A stretch of DNA of 64,000 nt, taken from a virus. Position numbers and translations under genes: made by a program. Under the pieces are notes generated by a model that saw nothing but the letters and a program-made list of their open reading frames with translations, was not told where the DNA came from and made no database searches. Positions 6,001-24,291 of the stretch are shown here, one piece after another. Every line of letters begins with the position of its first letter. The stretch's first letter is position 1. The stretch is taken from positions 13,362-77,361 of IMG/VR virus record IMGVR_UViG_3300047557_003034, one strand, 5' to 3'.

Positions 6001-8836
6001 TGTAGGTGGCTGTCTTAACAGTACTAGTGGTTACAATAGTGTAATAGTAGGAGGACACTCAAATACAATAAGTGGAACACAATCAGATACTGTAGGTTCA
6101 GTGATAGGTGGTGGTTGTTTCAACACTGTTAGTCTACTAGGTGCGATCTTCAGTGGTCATAGAAACTGTGTAATAGGTGTAAACTCTCAGGGAGAAGTAG
6201 GCGGTATCTTTGGTGGTGCATACAACACAGGATCTAATAGAAGTCACATCGTAGGTGGCTGTAATAACTCAGCAACTGGATGTAGATCTTTCATCGGATC
6301 AGGTACACGCAACTCAGTGTCAGGGTACGCTTCATCAGTAGTAGGAGGTTATCAAAACACCGGTTCTGCTAGCAACGTATTCGTAGGAAACGGAGCATTT
6401 AACGCAGCAGCTGCAACATACGCAGTCGTAGGAGGCGGTCAAGGCAATAGAGTACTAGGAGAAACCGGCTCAATAGCAGGCGGTTGGGGTAATACAATAT
6501 GTCTTGCTGGTAGCGGTTCATTCATAGGAGGTGGTCGAGTAAATACTATAACAGCACAGCTATCAACAATAGGAGGTGGTGTTAATAATACTGGTTCAAA
6601 CTCTTATACGTTTATAGGTGGTGGTGCAAGTAATACAGCAACTGGTCTATTTGCATCAGTCGTAGGAGGAGGTAGTAACTGTTCTGCATGCAACTTCGGT
6701 TTTGTAGGAGGTGGTCAAAATAACTGGTCAATAGGAAATGAATCAACTATATCAGGTGGATATTGTAATAGGATATTAAACACAGTATCAACATTTATAG
6801 GAGGTGGTTTCAAGAACTGTGTTACATCAGGACCCTACTCAGCTGTAGCAGGTGGTATTTTAAACACGATCACAGTAAGAGATTTTAGAAACAGTGCAAT
6901 AATAGCTGGAGGATCTACTAACACTGTAACAGCTGGTCTTAGTTTTATAGGCGGAGGTTGCACGAATACAGTAGCAGCAGAAACAGGATCAATAGTAGGT
7001 GGTGCTAGTAACACAATCTGCATAAGTGCAAGTGGATCATTCATAGGTGGTGGTAGAGGTAATATAGTGTCAGGACAGCTAGCAGCAGTGGTAGGTGGTC
7101 AAAGTAATACAGCATCGGGATCTAATAGTTTTGTAGGAGGAGGTTTAGCTAATAATGCAGCAGGTGCAGTATCTGTCGTAGGTGGTGGATGTGGAAATCG
7201 AACAAGTAACACCTACACAACTATTGCAGGAGGACTTATTAACACAACTAGCGGATACGGAGATACTATAGGTGGTGGTTATTTAAACATCACAGCAAAT
7301 AACAACTATCAAGGAATCTTTAGTGGATATGGTAATCAAACTACAGGTTCTTATAGTGCAGTACTAGGTGGTCTTCAAAACAGAGCAGCAGGTACAGCAG
7401 CAGCAGTAGGAAGTGGTTATTACAATGTAGCAGGTGGTTCTCACTCGTTTATAGGAAGTGGTAGAAACAACACTGCTAGCGGAACTTGCTCAACTATATC
7501 AGGTGGATACTTCAACGTCGCAACAGGCAACCATAGCTTCATAGGAAACGGTGCTTATAATAGCAACGTAGCATTAGGAGGTTTCATAGGAAACGGCTTT
7601 GAAAACTGTCTTACATCTGCAGCAGTATCATCCTCAGTAGTAGGCGGTGCTGATAACTGTGTTACAGGATGCTTTGCATTCATAGGAGGCGGTTGTCGAA
7701 ACACTGGTTCAGGTGTATTTAGCTTCGTAGGAGTTGGTAACAACAACAAAGCACTAAGTAACCATGGCCTAATAGTAGGAGGTAGAAACATTACCGTATC
7801 AGGAACTTATGGAATAGTAGGAGGTGGTGAAGGTAACTGTGTAACAGAAGTTTACGGATCTGTTTTTGGTGGTCTAACTAACTGTGTGATTGCTACTTAC
7901 GGTTTTGTAGGTGGTGGTACTACCAATACGGTAGCAGGACAAACCGGCTCAATAGTAGGTGGTCACAGTAATAGAATTTGCATCGGAGCATCCGGTTCAT
8001 TTATAGGTGGTGGTCGCTCAAACGTTGCATTGGACGGCATTGAAACAGTTATAGGAGGTGGCACAACTAACTGCACTAGTCAAAGATGGTCAGCAGTTGT
8101 AGGAGGTAACAACAACATCATAGCTAACTCAGCTGCATGTGCAAGTTTTATAGGTGCTGGTATCAGTAATATAATCTGCTGTGGATACAGTGTTATAGGA
8201 GGTGGATTTACGAACACAGCAATCCAGATGGGTAACGTCATTGCAGGAGGCTTCAATAACTCAAACAGCGGTGCATACGGTGTTATAGGAGGTGGTTGTT
8301 TGAATGTGGTTACTGCAACAGCAGCTACAATAGCAGGTGGTGTTAGGAACTGTGCAACAGCAGCTTGCTCAGCAATCTTGGGTGGTAACTTCAACACAGC
8401 ATCAGCAGTATTCGCAGGAGCTTTTGGATGCAACATCAACGCAAATGTGGCTTGTCACTTCTTCGTTAATAACCTCTCCGTAACAAATAACGTAACAGGA
8501 TCAAACGCCTGCTACACAGGCACAGTATCAGCAGCCTGTTTGATAGAAACATCATCAGAGAGGTATAAAGAGTGTATCAGACCTATAGGCTACAACACTG
8601 AAACTGTACAGCAACTTAATCCAATCCGCTTCCAATGGAAAGACAAAACCATCAGCAAGGATGACCAGTTAGGTCTCATTGCAGAAGAAGTGCAGAAGAT
8701 AATGCCGGAAGCAGTGATCTTGAATGATAAAGGTGAAGCAGAAGGTATCTCATACACAAAACTTGTACCGGTTCTAATCAAAGCAGTACAAGAGTTAGAG
8801 CAAAGAGTTGTATATTTAGAGAGTAAACTAAAATAA
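2..8836 (+). CDS. Giant tail fibre/adhesin with ~15-aa GGGxxNxAxGxxSxI repeats and C-terminal peptidase S74 intramolecular chaperone; 5'-truncated by the window edge
   Basis: The frame is open from base 2 (ISNCTLTVTGSS...), so the real start is upstream. Well over a hundred ~15-residue beta-roll-type repeats. The C-terminus TSSERYKECI...LNPIRFQWK...LGLIAEEV...YTKLVPVLIKAVQEL is typical of S74 chaperones. Confidence 0.85.
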   Translation: MSNCTLTVTGSSTLYGVICGGTNPIVAGDGSAVLNGWSNSAIGSGSIVGSGCQNIASGSCSAVVGGRFNTGSGGFSFVGNGYGNIASGSYTAIVGGLNNTGSGAFGFIGGGNNNKIIYNTTSDACYVAIGGGLNNTVCSRYSAIFGGVNNTIGIETDASTIVGGNANQVTSAGYSFVGGGGNNLSTGYYSFVGGGCGNRISIGICAYGVIVGGAGNCLVINNNSAIVGGQTNCIDGNYSFIGGGAGNRVIAASGSIVGGFSNIVSTAGCAGFIGGGQSNTVNSTAAVIGGGLSNSATGIYSIVAGGASNIANSSYAAVLGGTLNCATEFYSTVSGGYKSCATNQFSFVGGGRINVVSGNSAGIVAGRSNVASGQSSFIGSGFSNSASNCYAVAVGGSGSLASGIGSFVGGGFNNRATSACSVVVGGQQNTGSAAWTFVGGGISNTASNTYAFVGGGFCNVSSGLYATVTGGQFNTASFGFAFVGGGCRNAATSYASFVGGGDGNTASGYRNVVVGGAGNTASGYRAAIVGGSGNTNTGTNSFVGAGAQNNAGGLWSGIVLGRLNCTCTSSTASFIGGGQNNTVSNVLQSSIVGGGSNSVTATLGFIGGGAENTVAAETGSIVGGRGNVICIGGSGSFIGGGRSNVISSCLAAIVSGLTNTVSNFYGFIGGGTSNTVSGYLGAVLGGASNQATAGYSTVVGGQSNCAVGQKGFVGGGRCNRASGFAIVGGGCCNSASNYYTAILGGRQNTITTGGNCSIIGGGAFNTIAAYTGSIVGGDRNRICAAACGAFIGGGQQNTGSGVLTFIGGGQQNVAAGALSFVGGGQQNVATGILSFVGGGTFNTVAAATGSIVGGERNLITSTGCAAFIGGGQLNTGSAAWSFIGGGFNNYALGQGSFIGGGGSNLTFGSATSASVVSGTCNCAQGIASIVGSGCLNKATGTNTGVLGGSGNTASGACSTVVGGNGNVASGGYSIAGSGLTNSASGYLSALLGGESNTSGGSRSAVLGGRSNSASAYQSVAVGGGTNCATATAAAVVGGSLNTVSGACSFIGGGTLNTLSGIGGVIVGGSSNTGSANLGFIGGGGGNVVCNSYATVLGGENNRAMASRSTVGAGSGNLASGSYSGVFSGQNNNGSGSYSFIGGGVSNVALTVSVVAGGGQNTASGGYAIIGGGKQNSLSGDYASILGGTINAVTAIHGFVGGGCRNTVAGPSGSIVGGSRNCITTAGVESFIGGGYGNCTTAACTAILGGGFNTASAAFAGAFGCNLNASQACHFYVNNLSVPGNLTGSNMVLSGKLTVCQIEVQILSSSVSFFTGSTIFGSCLTNTHQFTGSVSITGSLRTCGPVCFTQTMAVGSGSTASGTYSSVAGGLSNTASGNCSHVGGGRANTTSGGFSTVGGGFSNSSSANYATTAGGIGNRAAGDSSFVGGGGSNLACGNCSAVVGGSLNSGSAAFTFVGGGSDNRATAFASAVVGGQVGLVSGEYSTISGGYRNTVAGCFGFVGGGYENTVSAQTGSIVGGRSNCICISASGSFIGGGRSNIVRGLLASAVGGVGNSASGSYSFIGGGSSNVVESCGGAVVSGTGNIIRAVVGGQGFIGAGAANTVSGCRAIIGAGVGNTASGDDNVIGGGFYNTVSNYQSVVVGGYQNVASNTRVFIGGGQNNLACGSLSVVAGGQLNTGSANLTSVLGGFGNRATAAGAVAVGGSSNQSAGASGFIGGGFNNTVSAPTGSIVGGAFNCLCTAACAAFIGGGQQNTGSGVMSFIGGGICNVASGNCSTIVGGQQNTGSGIFSFMGGGGRNAALGACSTVGGGEINIAGNQLSTVSGGYRNYACEYGATVAGGITNCVCGYIGTIAGGFGNAASGSYSFVGGGRQNLALAASSSIVGGCSNTICISASGSFIGGGQSNTVSGLLSAVVGGQSNLASGSHSFVGGGSSNAVRTCFSFIGGGTGNSITTSCCSVIVGGQNNTISGDFYQNWHFIGGGFGNSIAGGTNNRYGNIIVGGCLNSTSGYNSVIVGGHSNTISGTQSDTVGSVIGGGCFNTVSLLGAIFSGHRNCVIGVNSQGEVGGIFGGAYNTGSNRSHIVGGCNNSATGCRSFIGSGTRNSVSGYASSVVGGYQNTGSASNVFVGNGAFNAAAATYAVVGGGQGNRVLGETGSIAGGWGNTICLAGSGSFIGGGRVNTITAQLSTIGGGVNNTGSNSYTFIGGGASNTATGLFASVVGGGSNCSACNFGFVGGGQNNWSIGNESTISGGYCNRILNTVSTFIGGGFKNCVTSGPYSAVAGGILNTITVRDFRNSAIIAGGSTNTVTAGLSFIGGGCTNTVAAETGSIVGGASNTICISASGSFIGGGRGNIVSGQLAAVVGGQSNTASGSNSFVGGGLANNAAGAVSVVGGGCGNRTSNTYTTIAGGLINTTSGYGDTIGGGYLNITANNNYQGIFSGYGNQTTGSYSAVLGGLQNRAAGTAAAVGSGYYNVAGGSHSFIGSGRNNTASGTCSTISGGYFNVATGNHSFIGNGAYNSNVALGGFIGNGFENCLTSAAVSSSVVGGADNCVTGCFAFIGGGCRNTGSGVFSFVGVGNNNKALSNHGLIVGGRNITVSGTYGIVGGGEGNCVTEVYGSVFGGLTNCVIATYGFVGGGTTNTVAGQTGSIVGGHSNRICIGASGSFIGGGRSNVALDGIETVIGGGTTNCTSQRWSAVVGGNNNIIANSAACASFIGAGISNIICCGYSVIGGGFTNTAIQMGNVIAGGFNNSNSGAYGVIGGGCLNVVTATAATIAGGVRNCATAACSAILGGNFNTASAVFAGAFGCNINANVACHFFVNNLSVTNNVTGSNACYTGTVSAACLIETSSERYKECIRPIGYNTETVQQLNPIRFQWKDKTISKDDQLGLIAEEVQKIMPEAVILNDKGEAEGISYTKLVPVLIKAVQELEQRVVYLESKLK

Positions 8837-19270: not shown

Positions 19271-20146
19271 ATGAACATAATATTCCAAATCAACGGAGGA
19301 ATAGGTAAATGTATTATGGCTACCGCTGTATGCGAAGCCATTAAAAAGCAATACCCAAACTCTAAGCTCATAGTTGTTTCAGGATACGCAGATGTGTTCT
19401 TAAATAACCCACATGTTGATAGATCGCTGCAGTTTGGCAGCATAAGTTACTTCTACGAAGAGTATTTGCAAAACGAGAAGGACTTCAAAGTATTCGCTCA
19501 CGATCCGTACGTACAAACCGAATATCTCTACCAAAATGAACACTTGATTCAAACTTGGTGTGAGATGTTCGGCATTGCTTATGATGGTGAATACCCAAGC
19601 ATACATCTGACAGATAGAGAAAAAACATTCCTAAGCTCCAAATTTACATCGGATAGACCGATGCTAGTAATGCAAACAAATGGAGGAGCTGATGCAAACT
19701 TAAAGTACTCCTGGGCAAGAGATTTACCAGCCAATAACGTAACGGATGTAGTACAATACTTTTCTGAGCATTATAACATTGTGCATATAAGAAGAGAAGA
19801 TCAAATACAATATCCAGGCACAATACCAGTATCAGACAACTTCAGATCACTTGTGGTGCTTATATCACTGAGCCATAAGAGGCTGTTTATTGATAGCATG
19901 GGTCAACATGTGGCTGCATGTTTAGGATTACCATCAACAGTGTGTTGGGTTGTGAATAAACCTGAAGTCTTTGGATACCCAATACACGATAACATCATCT
20001 GTAAACCATTCACCAAGAAACCAGAGCTGAGAAATTCATACTTCCAGCAGTTCAATATTGGTGGTGATTTACTAGAATTTCCCTATAACTCCGAACACGA
20101 AGTGTTTGATAGCAAAGACATCATAAACTCAATACTAAAACAATAG
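19271..20146 (+). CDS. GT9 (ADP-heptose:heptosyltransferase)-like glycosyltransferase
   Basis: N-terminal GGIGK..MAT.V...IKK.YP...LIV motif, LNNPHVD, C-terminal FIDS..QHVAA.LG.P, resembling the GT9 GxGD...DSG..H.AAA pattern. Confidence 0.7.
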   Translation: MNIIFQINGGIGKCIMATAVCEAIKKQYPNSKLIVVSGYADVFLNNPHVDRSLQFGSISYFYEEYLQNEKDFKVFAHDPYVQTEYLYQNEHLIQTWCEMFGIAYDGEYPSIHLTDREKTFLSSKFTSDRPMLVMQTNGGADANLKYSWARDLPANNVTDVVQYFSEHYNIVHIRREDQIQYPGTIPVSDNFRSLVVLISLSHKRLFIDSMGQHVAACLGLPSTVCWVVNKPEVFGYPIHDNIICKPFTKKPELRNSYFQQFNIGGDLLEFPYNSEHEVFDSKDIINSILKQ

Positions 20147-20151
20147 GTTAC

Positions 20152-20970
20152 ATGGAGAAGTTATTCTTTCAGAGTTCTTTACCGAGAGCAGGCAGTACAC
20201 TTTTACAAAACATTCTCGCACAAAACCCAGACATCTATGCTACTCCTACATCAGGAGTGTTAGAACTTGTGTTTGCAGCAAGAGGAAATTACACTGAATC
20301 ACCAGAGTTCATTGCTCAAGATCCAAGTCTAATGCGAGCAGGCTTTTTATCCTTTTGTAGAAAGGGAATGGATGGCTTTTACGAAGCTGTGACAGACAAG
20401 AAGTACGTAGTAGATAAATCAAGAGGATGGGGAATACACTACGACTTCCTCAACCTAATCTATCCAGAACCCAAGATCGTTGTCATGGTTAGGGACCTAA
20501 GAGACATCTTCTGTTCAATGGAGAAGAACTTCAGAAAGAATCCTGACAAAGCTAGTTCAGTTCTTAACTGGTCACAGATGAGCGGTACAACAGTACCTAA
20601 GAGGATTGATATATGGGCTCAATCACAGCCGGTAGGACTTGCAATAGAGAGGTTGTCTGAAATATTCAGGCAGGGACTTGACAGTAAAATGCTATTTGTT
20701 CGCTTTGAAGATCTTTGTTTATATCCCGAAACTGAGATGACTAGGATCTATCAATACCTCGATATCCCCTACTACCAGCATGATTTTGATCATATAGAAC
20801 AAGTGACAAAGGAAGATGATGAGGTGTATGGTATGTTCGGAGATCACCAGATCAGAACTAAGTTAGCTCCTGTACCATCTACTGCTAAACAAGTACTTGG
20901 AAAGGATGTAACAGAGTGGATTTGGAATGCATACCCCTGGTATTTCCAACAGTTTAGGTACACAAAATAA
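20152..20970 (+). CDS. PAPS-dependent sulfotransferase
   Basis: 5'-PSB loop SLPRAGSTLL, DKSRGW, 3'-PB motif VRDLRDIFCS, VRFEDL. Confidence 0.85.
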   Translation: MEKLFFQSSLPRAGSTLLQNILAQNPDIYATPTSGVLELVFAARGNYTESPEFIAQDPSLMRAGFLSFCRKGMDGFYEAVTDKKYVVDKSRGWGIHYDFLNLIYPEPKIVVMVRDLRDIFCSMEKNFRKNPDKASSVLNWSQMSGTTVPKRIDIWAQSQPVGLAIERLSEIFRQGLDSKMLFVRFEDLCLYPETEMTRIYQYLDIPYYQHDFDHIEQVTKEDDEVYGMFGDHQIRTKLAPVPSTAKQVLGKDVTEWIWNAYPWYFQQFRYTK

Positions 20971-20974
20971 AAGT

Positions 20975-21412
20975 ATGATATACTGGTTCACTGGTCAGCC
21001 TGGAGCAGGCAAAACAACTCTCTGCAAAAGTCTCATTCTTCAGTTCTACCCGTCTAAGACAATTCACGTGGATGGTGACGACATAAGAGAGATTTTTGAA
21101 AATAAAGATTACTCGGAAGCAGGTAGAAGAAAAAACGTAGAGCTTGCACAGAACATTGCCTACTTCATGCATAAAAAAGGCTACCTAGTGTTGGTTTCAC
21201 TAGTATCTCCTTATAAAGATCAAAGAGAAGCCTTCAAAGCACGGCTAGGTGACTCAATTAAGGAAATCTACGTACATGCGTTTACAGATAGGGGTAGAAC
21301 GCAGTTTCACGTGGCTAATTACGAGCCTCCTACTGAGAACTACATTGACATAGATACAACAAATGCCACTGAATTTGAGTCGTTAAAACAGCTATTAACA
21401 CAGATAAAATAA
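20975..21412 (+). CDS. cysC: Adenylylsulfate (APS) kinase
   Basis: MIYWFTGQPGAGKTT P-loop, DGDDIR, YS..GR..N, SLVSPY, YEPP; ATG at 20975 follows the sulfotransferase stop. Confidence 0.85.
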   Translation: MIYWFTGQPGAGKTTLCKSLILQFYPSKTIHVDGDDIREIFENKDYSEAGRRKNVELAQNIAYFMHKKGYLVLVSLVSPYKDQREAFKARLGDSIKEIYVHAFTDRGRTQFHVANYEPPTENYIDIDTTNATEFESLKQLLTQIK

Positions 21413-21774
21413 TGATAAAAGAAGCAGAAATAGTTGAAAAAGGTTGGGGACAGGAAGTGGTGTTTGCAAATAGCCAGCAGTATTGTGGTAAAATACTCGT
21501 ATTCAAGGAAGGTGGTACTAGCTCAATGCATTACCACATACAAAAGCAAGAGACTTGGTACGTTACAAAAGGTAAGTTTCTGTACAAGTACATTGATACA
21601 GATACAGCAGATGTACTAGAGGCTGAACTAAATGTCGGAGATGTTGTGACAAATCTAAGAGGAGAACCACATCAGTTAATAGCTCTAGAAGAGAATAGTG
21701 TAATATTCGAAGTGTCAACAGAGCATATAGATGAGGATTCTTACAGAGTATTTAAAGGAGATTCACAACAATGA
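21412..21774 (+). CDS. Cupin-fold sugar isomerase (mannose-6-phosphate isomerase/lyxose isomerase-like)
   Basis: KGWG.E, YCGKIL, SMHYH..K.ETWYV..G, PHQL, EVST cupin motifs. Confidence 0.75.
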   Translation: MIKEAEIVEKGWGQEVVFANSQQYCGKILVFKEGGTSSMHYHIQKQETWYVTKGKFLYKYIDTDTADVLEAELNVGDVVTNLRGEPHQLIALEENSVIFEVSTEHIDEDSYRVFKGDSQQ

Positions 21775-22184
21775 AAGTTTGGGTAAATGGAACATTTGAT
21801 GTTTTACATTTGGGGCATATTAGGTTACTTGAGTATGCTGCCAGTCATGGAGAGGTCAGAGTGGGGGTGGACACAGATGAGAGAGTTAGACAGGCGAAAG
21901 GTCCAACCAGACCCTTTAACATACTTAGAGATAGGATGGCTATGCTATCATCTATCAGGTATGTTAGTAGCGTCGTGTCTTTTGGTACAGATGATGAACT
22001 TGTACAATGTGTTATGGAGTACAAACCTGACATTATGGTAGTTGGCTCAGATTATGAGAACAAGAGGGTTATTGGTCATGAGCATGCGGATGTTTTAATA
22101 TTCTTTCCCAAAATCCAATCGTACAGCACAACTGACATATTAAGGTATGAAACAAATATTAATAATCGGGGATCAGTGTATTGA
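21771..22184 (+). CDS. hldC: Heptose-1-phosphate nucleotidyltransferase (RfaE domain II/HldC-like)
   Basis: NGTFDVLHLGH, KGPTRPFN, KPDIMVVGSDY, YSTT motifs. Confidence 0.8.
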   Translation: MKVWVNGTFDVLHLGHIRLLEYAASHGEVRVGVDTDERVRQAKGPTRPFNILRDRMAMLSSIRYVSSVVSFGTDDELVQCVMEYKPDIMVVGSDYENKRVIGHEHADVLIFFPKIQSYSTTDILRYETNINNRGSVY

Positions 22185-22890
22185 TAAGTTTGTGTACGGA
22201 GAAGCAAAGAGACTAAGTCCTGAAGCTCCTGTACCAGTCTTTACACCTCATAATACAGCAACCAGCAATGGAATGGCTGCAAATGTTGCACGTAATCTAC
22301 GAGCAATGGCTCCCGAATACATGATAACAACTCAACACAATCCGGAAACCATAACTAAGACTAGGTATATCGATCATAAGACAAATCATATGTTTCTTAG
22401 AGTGGATGAAGGAGATACTGTGAAACCACTTGAACTAGATCTAAAACTAAGAGCTTCCATCCCAGAATTTGATGCTGTTGTAGTAAGCGATTATAACAAA
22501 GGATACCTACCACTCAGCGTTATTGAGTACATAGGTAAGAATGCCAAAATGTCTTTCATTGACTCTAAAAAGAAGCTGCCACTAGAAGTTGCTAGTCTTT
22601 ATACTATTGTCAAAATGAACGAACAAGAGTATGAGAGCTATAACGGGTCTCTAGACTCAATCTCAAACAGCCTCATAATCACACTAGGTAGTAAGGGAGC
22701 TAAGTATAAGCACAAAGTATTCAACTCACTGCAGCCAAAAGAAACGATAGATGTGAGTGGTGCTGGAGATACTTTCCTAGCAGCATTCGTATATTGGTAC
22801 CTACAGACAGGATCAATCCAATCAGCAATAGTCCATGCCAATGAAAAAGCCGCTATAGTTGTAACTAAAAAAGGAGTTGCTGTACCATGA
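22147..22890 (+). CDS. hldA: Heptose-7-phosphate kinase (RfaE domain I/HldA, PfkB family)
   Basis: GD..ID.FVYG...RLSPEAPVPV, SDYNKG, DVSGAGDTF. Confidence 0.88.
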   Translation: MKQILIIGDQCIDKFVYGEAKRLSPEAPVPVFTPHNTATSNGMAANVARNLRAMAPEYMITTQHNPETITKTRYIDHKTNHMFLRVDEGDTVKPLELDLKLRASIPEFDAVVVSDYNKGYLPLSVIEYIGKNAKMSFIDSKKKLPLEVASLYTIVKMNEQEYESYNGSLDSISNSLIITLGSKGAKYKHKVFNSLQPKETIDVSGAGDTFLAAFVYWYLQTGSIQSAIVHANEKAAIVVTKKGVAVP

Positions 22891-23699
22891 ATATAGTAGT
22901 GACTGGTCATTTAGGTTTTATTGGTCGTAATCTGAAAGCAGAGCTTGAAAAGAAACACCAAGTCTACGGGATTGAAGTAGATGCCTATGATGATGCAGAC
23001 TGGCAATTTACACTAAAAAACAAACTGGATAGCATAAAACCAACTGCTATTTTTCATGTAGGAGCAATATCAAACACGCTTCATACGGACGTTGAAACCA
23101 TAATGAAACTAAACTGGGAGACAACAACAGTGTTTTCAGACTACTGCAAAGCAGTAAACATTCCACTAATCTACAGCTCAACTGCAGCTATCTACGGAGA
23201 TGGTGAAGGTAAGAAAAACCTATATGCTTGGACTAAGTATGCAGGAGAGAAGTATGTAATAGCAAACAATCAAATAGCTCTCAGGTACTTCAACGTATAC
23301 GGACCTGGAGAGGATAAAAAGAAACGTATGGCATCAGTTGCCTACCAAGCCTTTTTGCACGATATACACGGAACCAAGATCAAGCTGTTCAAAGGAGAAC
23401 CAAAGAGAGACTTCGTATACGTAAAGGATGTAGTGGATGCAAACATATTCGCACTTAAGAATTACTTCAAACTAACTAAGAAACAATATGATGTGGGTGT
23501 TGGTAAAGCGGTTACGTTTGAGTATCTTATGGATATAATGAATCTCAAGTACGCATATCAAGATATATCAGCAATACCAAACAACTATCAATACCATACC
23601 CAAAGTAATCCTGAAAACTGGATGAAGGGTTGGAAACCTAAATACGACGTTGAGAAAGGATTAAATGAATACAAGCAACACTTATGGAATACTATTTAG
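22887..23699 (+). CDS. hldD: ADP-L-glycero-D-manno-heptose 6-epimerase
   Basis: VTG..GFIG, YSSTAAIYG, YxxxK (YAWTK), LRYFNVYGPGE..K..MASV, RDFVYVKDVV. Confidence 0.82.
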   Translation: MNIVVTGHLGFIGRNLKAELEKKHQVYGIEVDAYDDADWQFTLKNKLDSIKPTAIFHVGAISNTLHTDVETIMKLNWETTTVFSDYCKAVNIPLIYSSTAAIYGDGEGKKNLYAWTKYAGEKYVIANNQIALRYFNVYGPGEDKKKRMASVAYQAFLHDIHGTKIKLFKGEPKRDFVYVKDVVDANIFALKNYFKLTKKQYDVGVGKAVTFEYLMDIMNLKYAYQDISAIPNNYQYHTQSNPENWMKGWKPKYDVEKGLNEYKQHLWNTI

Positions 23700-24082
23700 C
23701 AAGAGCAGCTGGAGATTTGCTGACAAAAGGACCTAAATATGCCATGTTCATAGGAAGATGGCAACCATGGCATGCTGGACATAGGTGGCTTATTGATCAA
23801 GCACTTAACAAAGGTAAAAATGTTCTCATCTGCATAAGAGATGTAGAACCTGATGATAAAAATCCTTGGACTGCAAAGCAGATACTTGACAATCTTGCAA
23901 ACGAGCTTAAAGATTTGCTTTTAGAAGGCAGAGTAGTACTGCTTGTGATTCCTGACATAGAGTCTGTCAACATAGGTAGAGGTGTTGGATATGATGTAAT
24001 AGAACATACACCACCCGAAGAAATCAGACAGATATCAGCAACAGCAATCAGGGAAGAAATGAAAAAGGAAGGTAAACTGTGA
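23684..24082 (+). CDS. HIGH-motif (HUP-fold) nucleotidyltransferase, candidate minimal ATP sulfurylase
   Basis: FIGRWQPWHAGH and C-terminal ISATAIR; lies in an operon with APS kinase and a sulfotransferase. Confidence 0.65.
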   Translation: MEYYLARAAGDLLTKGPKYAMFIGRWQPWHAGHRWLIDQALNKGKNVLICIRDVEPDDKNPWTAKQILDNLANELKDLLLEGRVVLLVIPDIESVNIGRGVGYDVIEHTPPEEIRQISATAIREEMKKEGKL

Positions 24083-24291
24083 AGGTAACTGCAAAACGAC
24101 ATATAGCAAAAACAATCAGCTACCGTATTGTAAGTACGTTGATAGGGTTTTTGATAATGTGGTGGGCAACAGGAAGTGTGAAAGTGGGAGCGGCTTTTGG
24201 TGTAGCTGAACTGATCTATAAACCAGTTCAATACTACATTCATGAGAGAGTTTGGTATAAATGGATAAAATTTGGATTAGTGAAAGAGTAG
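24079..24291 (+). CDS. DUF2061-like small membrane protein
   Basis: RHIAKTISYR...YYIHERVW pattern with two hydrophobic segments; GTG start. Confidence 0.75.
   Translation: MKVTAKRHIAKTISYRIVSTLIGFLIMWWATGSVKVGAAFGVAELIYKPVQYYIHERVWYKWIKFGLVKE

Follow-up and report, generated by a model that had tools for sequence, protein, structure and literature searches.

The DNA that we analysed (the window, 64,000 nucleotides in all) belongs to the IMG/VR virus record IMGVR_UViG_3300047557_003034, which is 77,361 b long and, by estimate, ~41% complete. Its plus strand carries, in this order, a gene for a 291-aa protein that travels with the sulfotransferase (ORF at 19271-20146), a 272-aa PAPS-type sulfotransferase (20152-20970; PF13469, 1.4e-19; PF00685, 5.4e-11), a short, 161-aa APS kinase with a shortened lid region (20927-21412; PF01583, 4.6e-17; TIGR00455, 2e-19), four ADP-heptose-type genes recognised by Pfam and NCBIfam matches (21412-23699), a 132-aa HxGH (HIGH-type) nucleotidyltransferase that we call NT132 (ORF at 23684-24082; PF01467), and a 70-aa small membrane protein of the DUF2061 family (24079-24291; PF09834, E 4.6e-16). 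The ADP-heptose-type set consists of a cupin, an HldE adenylyltransferase-like protein, an HldE kinase-like protein and a heptose 6-epimerase-like protein; the NT132 ORF overlaps the epimerase gene upstream by 16 nt and the DUF2061 gene downstream, which is translationally coupled to it, by 4 nt. NT132 is the subject of this work, as the candidate for a minimal sulfate adenylyltransferase.

The first-pass annotation of the window had described an APS kinase and a sulfotransferase without Sat or CysDN, a ~130-aa protein bearing GRWQPWHAGH and ISATAIR, and a DUF2061-like gene next to it. Family matches bear out the kinase, the sulfotransferase and the DUF2061 gene, the two motifs lie at residues 24-33 and 117-123 of NT132, and neither Sat (PF01747) nor CysD (TIGR02039) was found in the window or in the rest of the record at its ~41% completeness. 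The 291-aa protein, which the same annotation had called GT9-like, has no match in Pfam or NCBIfam at E 0.01. All 22 PDB sequence matches of the window's APS kinase are APS kinases, and its P-loop, DGDxxR, YS..GR..N and SLVxPY..R motifs are invariant or nearly so among 31 orthologous short APS kinases, in which the positions that we take to contact APS are also conserved. The sulfotransferase is the likely consumer of the PAPS product. An assignment of the window to a cyanomyovirus core gene family was dropped, since there were no matches to cultured cyanophages.

NT132 belongs to a large family, which forms 5,285 clusters when grouped at 90% identity and has 1,155 representatives at 50%. Its sole Pfam match is to the N-terminal part of PF01467 (CTP_transf_like; 26.6 bits, cut-off 21), and the Pfam scan returned no match to PF01747. 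The top NCBIfam models are those of NadM/archaeal NMN adenylyltransferases (NMNATs), with scores far under their cut-offs (TIGR01527, 37.3 versus 127; NF002243, 32.1 versus 181.2), and the PPAT model NF001985 also scores below its own (19.2 bits versus 104). Conserved across the family are G24, R25, H30, G32, H33, R52, P61, G98, R99, V101, G102, Y103, S118, T120 and R123; hardly any variation is seen in four arginines or in the catalytic motifs HxGH and ISxTxxR, and two arginines, one in IRD (R52-D53) and one in the GRxVGY loop, are specific to the family. A profile built from 43 members matches the NMNAT of M. jannaschii (1f9a) over two separate segments (2e-11), with profile positions 10-81 falling on residues 4-76 and positions 90-118 on residues 110-137. 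Between the DIE and GYEV motifs, 1f9a has 33 residues and NT132 only 8, so that ~25 residues are missing from the core; the missing segment presumably carries the NMN contacts, and the 8 residues that replace it contain a Gly that never varies and an Arg that rarely does.

Real Sat sequences show QTRNPxHRAH where NT132 has GRWQPWHAGH, and the sulfate-binding QxRN portion of the motif is absent from NT132, although its HxxH portion is present; ISATAIR aligns to the ISGTxxR of Sat, a motif common to the whole superfamily. Taken alone, the motif argument of the first-pass annotation is weak: both HxGH and ISxTxxR are found across the HUP nucleotidyltransferases, and NT132 resembles NMNAT and PPAT more closely than Sat. 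A profile alignment with hhalign of NT132 residues 46-132 to ten real Sat sequences (probability 80%, E 1.4e-5) places ISAT on ISGT and IRD (R52-D53) on the GRD of Sat, with the HxGH region outside the alignment. Two stretches of NT132 are candidates for the counterpart of Sat's GRDHAG loop, namely, IRD and the conserved GR(G/D)VGY at residues 98-103.

The AlphaFold (AF2) model of NT132 (pLDDT 87.9) resembles NMNAT (1f9a) and PPAT equally, with a tie at Z ~10.5 over ~110 residues, and in the Foldseek list Sat first appears at rank 37. Fold searches with the model do not separate NMNAT from PPAT and do not place Sat near the top. Judged from profile matches and from the predicted model, NT132 is closest to archaeal/NadM NMN adenylyltransferases and PPAT, and not to Sat. 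The predicted complex of the APS kinase with NT132 scored 0.00 and was counted neither for nor against an interaction.

Gene linkage in viruses was studied in 80 IMG/VR loci carrying NT132. Of these, 76 contain a homologue of APS kinase, almost always directly upstream, and three of the four loci without one are cut contigs; in the fourth (L068:7076-8605), which is uncut, NT132 is preceded by a UvdE UV-endonuclease gene and followed by DUF2061. Orthologues of the sulfotransferase and of the 291-aa protein occur in 26/80 and 32/80 loci, respectively, the latter usually beside the former. ADP-heptose genes are found in only 7-9 of the 80 loci, which indicates that, in the window, they have been inserted between the two members of an APS kinase-NT132 pair. 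DUF2061 accompanies NT132 in 47/80 viral and 4/80 cellular loci; its longer forms (125-150 aa) offered no informative fusion, and the literature holds only passing mentions of it. Many freshwater phage loci have no sulfotransferase within 8 kb. Five phage contigs of 98-309 kb (L073, L074, L077, L080 and L081) combine the kinase-NT132 pair with no recognisable sulfotransferase over that distance, and their neighboring genes encode DUF3310, an N6/N4 DNA methylase, NUDIX, DUF192 and two conserved proteins that match no family. A HAD-type phosphatase of 112 aa separates APS kinase from NT132, as the only gene between them, in 12 viral loci and comes just after NT132 in 4 more (examples are L060:7657-7992 and, at 7666-8001 in each case, L013-L016, L024 and L037); it is absent from the window, and it could remove PPi or PAP.

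A similar picture emerges from 80 cellular loci, where APS kinase adjoins NT132 in 69, in both gene orders. The carriers include Marinimicrobia, Bacteroidota (Flavobacteriales), Verrucomicrobiota, Planctomycetota, Omnitrophota and Acidobacteriota, as well as Poseidoniia and other archaea. Over the viral and cellular loci together, a kinase HMM detects APS kinase in 146/160. Sulfotransfer_5 occurs in 21 of the 80 cellular loci, within capsule-type gene clusters that also hold Wzi, UDP-glucose dehydrogenase, GT4 and epimerases.

The two domains are also found in a single polypeptide. Fusions of APS kinase and NT132 make up 16 of 21 long homologues, with the kinase first in at least 13 and NT132 first in two, and several of them carry a canonical, full-length CysC with a complete lid. 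Among the 45 long representatives at 50% identity, PF01583 is present in 32 (best E, 9.5e-69) and DUF2061 in one. A fusion of this domain to CysC, which the first-pass annotation had proposed to look for, thus exists in both domain orders, and an archaeal cluster of the ESM Atlas with the kinase-NT132 architecture bears the automatic label "putative sulfate adenylyltransferase/adenylylsulfate kinase". More distant relatives occur in siphophages: proteins of ~245 aa from Xylella phage Bacata (L001:3205-4378) and Stenotrophomonas phage DLP_6 (L002:3593-4321) consist of an NT132-like domain (38-40% identity) fused with a truncated P-loop domain of the APS kinase type, and databases name them "kinase" or "adenylylsulfate kinase". 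The Bacata gene follows a NADAR-domain gene, and across the distant fusions of Xylella, Xanthomonas and Stenotrophomonas phages a NADAR protein is adjacent and no sulfotransferase is in view. In a 237-aa JGI metagenome protein (P0124), the NT132 domain is followed by a C-terminal PF01883 domain (FeS-assembly SUF-type); three further proteins (P0133, P0136 and P0140) look like a truncated NT132 attached to unrelated sequences, perhaps through chimeric assembly.

The clearest exceptions to APS kinase adjacency are three Nitrospiraceae loci (L149:4641-8411, L136 and L152), in which an NT132 homologue, with no kinase alongside, comes after a sulfite reductase-TusA fusion (NIR_SIR plus TusA) and an APS reductase of the thioredoxin-dependent type (TIGR02055, 272-273 bits; cut-off, 235.3); the same genomes hold a Sat-CysC fusion elsewhere. 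APS is the common substrate of APS kinase and APS reductase. Given that both partners of NT132 use APS, the simplest explanation shared by the two contexts is that NT132 would produce it.

In 50 cellular carrier genomes, many of them incomplete MAGs, Sat was found in 7, CysD in 10, one or the other in 16 and neither in 34, tallies that ignore phylogeny; one of the carriers with neither is a single chromosome record of 969,550 b. As a control, we used 151 genomes of one phylum that were at least 80% complete, 99 of which have APS kinase. Sat or CysD is present in 88 of the 95 APS-kinase genomes that lack NT132 and both are absent from 7, whereas all four with NT132 lack both. The raw Fisher p value for this complementarity is 2e-14, a figure that ignores phylogeny and compares sets of differing completeness. 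On the viral side, 36 carrier virus records, 9 of them at least 90% complete, contain neither Sat nor CysD, so that no canonical sat or cysD gene turned up elsewhere in our record or in these fuller related genomes. Five carrier genomes possess a canonical NadD of their own, and NT132 is therefore not needed there as an NMNAT.

A diverged member of the family (~45% identity) is present in 71 of 121 Pelagibacteraceae genomes. In all five SAR11 genomes checked, each largely a single contig of 1.3-1.4 Mb, an APS-kinase-like gene (135-147 aa) lies directly upstream of it, and the kinase of this pair is very reduced; Sat is found in one of the five and CysD in none. Genomic context was recorded for one of the SAR11 genomes (G341; L181:2990-8215), where the pair has a Rieske oxygenase gene on one side and enoyl-CoA hydratase (ECH), CoA-binding, YeeE-type sulfur transport, DUF6691 and flavodoxin-like genes on the other, surroundings unlike those in the phages. 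Among seven SAR11 strains, Grote et al. 2012 (PMC3448164) reported sat in one alone, and they mentioned an APS kinase. The SAR11 pair may differ in function from the phage cassette, and APS in SAR11 could also come from AprBA; the subfamily is as much a caveat as a support for the sulfurylase reading.

Taken together, the adjacency to APS kinase, the fusions, the Nitrospiraceae operon and the complementarity to Sat and CysD support the first-pass proposal of a miniature sulfurylase, and we put the probability that NT132 is a minimal, third type of ATP sulfurylase (EC 2.7.7.4) feeding a phage PAPS pathway at roughly 0.65. The fold, the motifs, the gene linkage, the fusions and the distribution are direct results, and from them we infer what NT132 acts on, what its residues do and what is sulfated, as follows. 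NT132 would be built on an NMNAT/PPAT-like HUP core of ~115 residues, in which ATP would be bound by HxGH and the ISATxIR helix, which would also stabilise the attack on the alpha-phosphate. The short loop SVN-x-GR-x-VGY would replace the NMN-binding segment and, together with the Arg-Asp pair of IRD, bind sulfate, so that NT132 would convert ATP and sulfate to APS and PPi. The neighboring or fused APS kinase would then turn APS into PAPS, pulling the unfavourable first step forward, and the sulfotransferase of the operon would use the PAPS to sulfate an acceptor, either a glycan or the virion. The phage would thus own a route from sulfate through PAPS to the acceptor. With slightly more reserve, we favour the view that NT132 founds a third class of ATP sulfurylases of ~115-130 residues, derived from an NMNAT-like ancestor; its members occur in large phages, SAR406, Flavobacteriales, Planctomycetota, Omnitrophota, Poseidoniia archaea and, in the diverged form, most sampled SAR11 genomes. 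In the literature covered, which takes in few subscription-journal papers, we found no paper describing an NT132-type enzyme.

Linkage to a kinase fits any adenylyl-X intermediate, and NT132 could accordingly adenylylate another oxyanion or a phospho-compound, with the APS-kinase-like enzyme phosphorylating the 3'-OH of the product. PPAT, which ties with NMNAT in fold score, forms just such a system with dephospho-CoA kinase, the SAR11 cassette lies beside ECH and CoA-binding genes, and the lid of the phage kinases is shortened. Nevertheless, we regard a different acceptor as unlikely: many fusion partners are canonical CysC proteins, with E values down to 9.5e-69, the presumed APS-contacting positions persist in the short kinases, and the link to APS reductase and sulfite reductase in Nitrospiraceae is specific to sulfate; the co-occurring sulfotransferases and the distribution complementary to Sat and CysD also speak against it. 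The automatic JGI names point instead to a true NMN adenylyltransferase for NAD salvage. NadM/archaeal NMNATs are indeed the best matches in both sequence and structure, GRxQPxHxGH is common to both, and the distant phage fusions adjoin a NADAR protein. Against these points, NT132 reaches 32-37 bits where the cut-offs are 127-181, it lacks the ~25 residues between DIE and GYEV, its surroundings contain APS kinase in 146/160 loci and no NAD genes, and carrier genomes already have NadD; a role in NAD salvage is, in our estimation, quite improbable.

The tight linkage of NT132 to the kinase, often to the point of fusion, could also reflect a partner of APS kinase that is regulatory or has no catalysis of its own, or else a protein acting on PAPS or PAP, and there is a precedent in fungal Sat, in which an APS-kinase-like domain serves regulation. 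Against it, HxGH, ISxTxxR and four arginines scarcely vary, and in Nitrospiraceae the gene stands beside APS reductase without a kinase; we consider this reading very improbable. The position of NT132 directly after HldE-like and HldD-like genes in the window would fit, finally, a role within that ADP-heptose gene set, as its second nucleotidyltransferase for a sugar phosphate (heptose). This is the explanation to which we give the least credence, as heptose genes occur in 7-9/80 viral loci compared to 76/80 for the kinase, and the operon already has an HldE-type adenylyltransferase (21771-22184).

To our knowledge, the recognised ATP sulfurylases are of two kinds, Sat and CysDN. Whether a genome is called capable of sulfate activation depends on these two alone, and genes of the NT132 type are currently given automatic names as NMNAT or cytidylyltransferase. 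If the sulfurylase reading is correct, the capacity for sulfate activation would be under-called in abundant ocean microbes, including streamlined marine bacteria and archaea, and APS kinases that seem to have no source of APS would be explained. Phages would carry a complete supply of PAPS for the sulfation of glycans or virions, and NT132 would offer a very small enzyme for the synthesis of APS and PAPS in vitro.

Among known systems, PPAT with dephospho-CoA kinase (CoA synthase) resembles the NT132 pair in joining a small HUP adenylyltransferase to a P-loop 3'-kinase, sometimes in one protein; however, the kinase next to NT132 is of the CysC family and not CoaE, and nothing in NT132 indicates a pantetheine pocket. 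The archaeal/NadM NMNATs (PDB 1f9a, 1ej2 and 2qjo) are the closest match overall and share GRxQPxHxGH, NPxT, DIE, GYEV and ISGTxIR with NT132, which differs from them in its 8-residue segment with the GR motif and in a context of sulfate activation instead of NAD. CysDN is comparable in its place upstream of CysC, which is also the role proposed for NT132, and the distribution of NT132 is complementary to that of CysD, but the folds are unrelated (a PAPS-reductase-like CysD and the GTPase CysN) and NT132 has no coupling to GTP. Compared to Sat (PF01747), with roughly 380-400 residues, NT132 has a core of ~115 residues; it gives no PF01747 match, lacks the QxRN motif as well as any additional domain, PUA-like or otherwise, and stands closer to NMNAT in sequence. 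With Sat and the PAPS synthases, such as the Sat-CysC fusions and human PAPSS, NT132 nevertheless has in common the HUP superfamily, HxxH and ISxTxxR, as well as an APS kinase partner, separate or fused with either domain first, and the reaction that we propose for NT132 would be identical to theirs.
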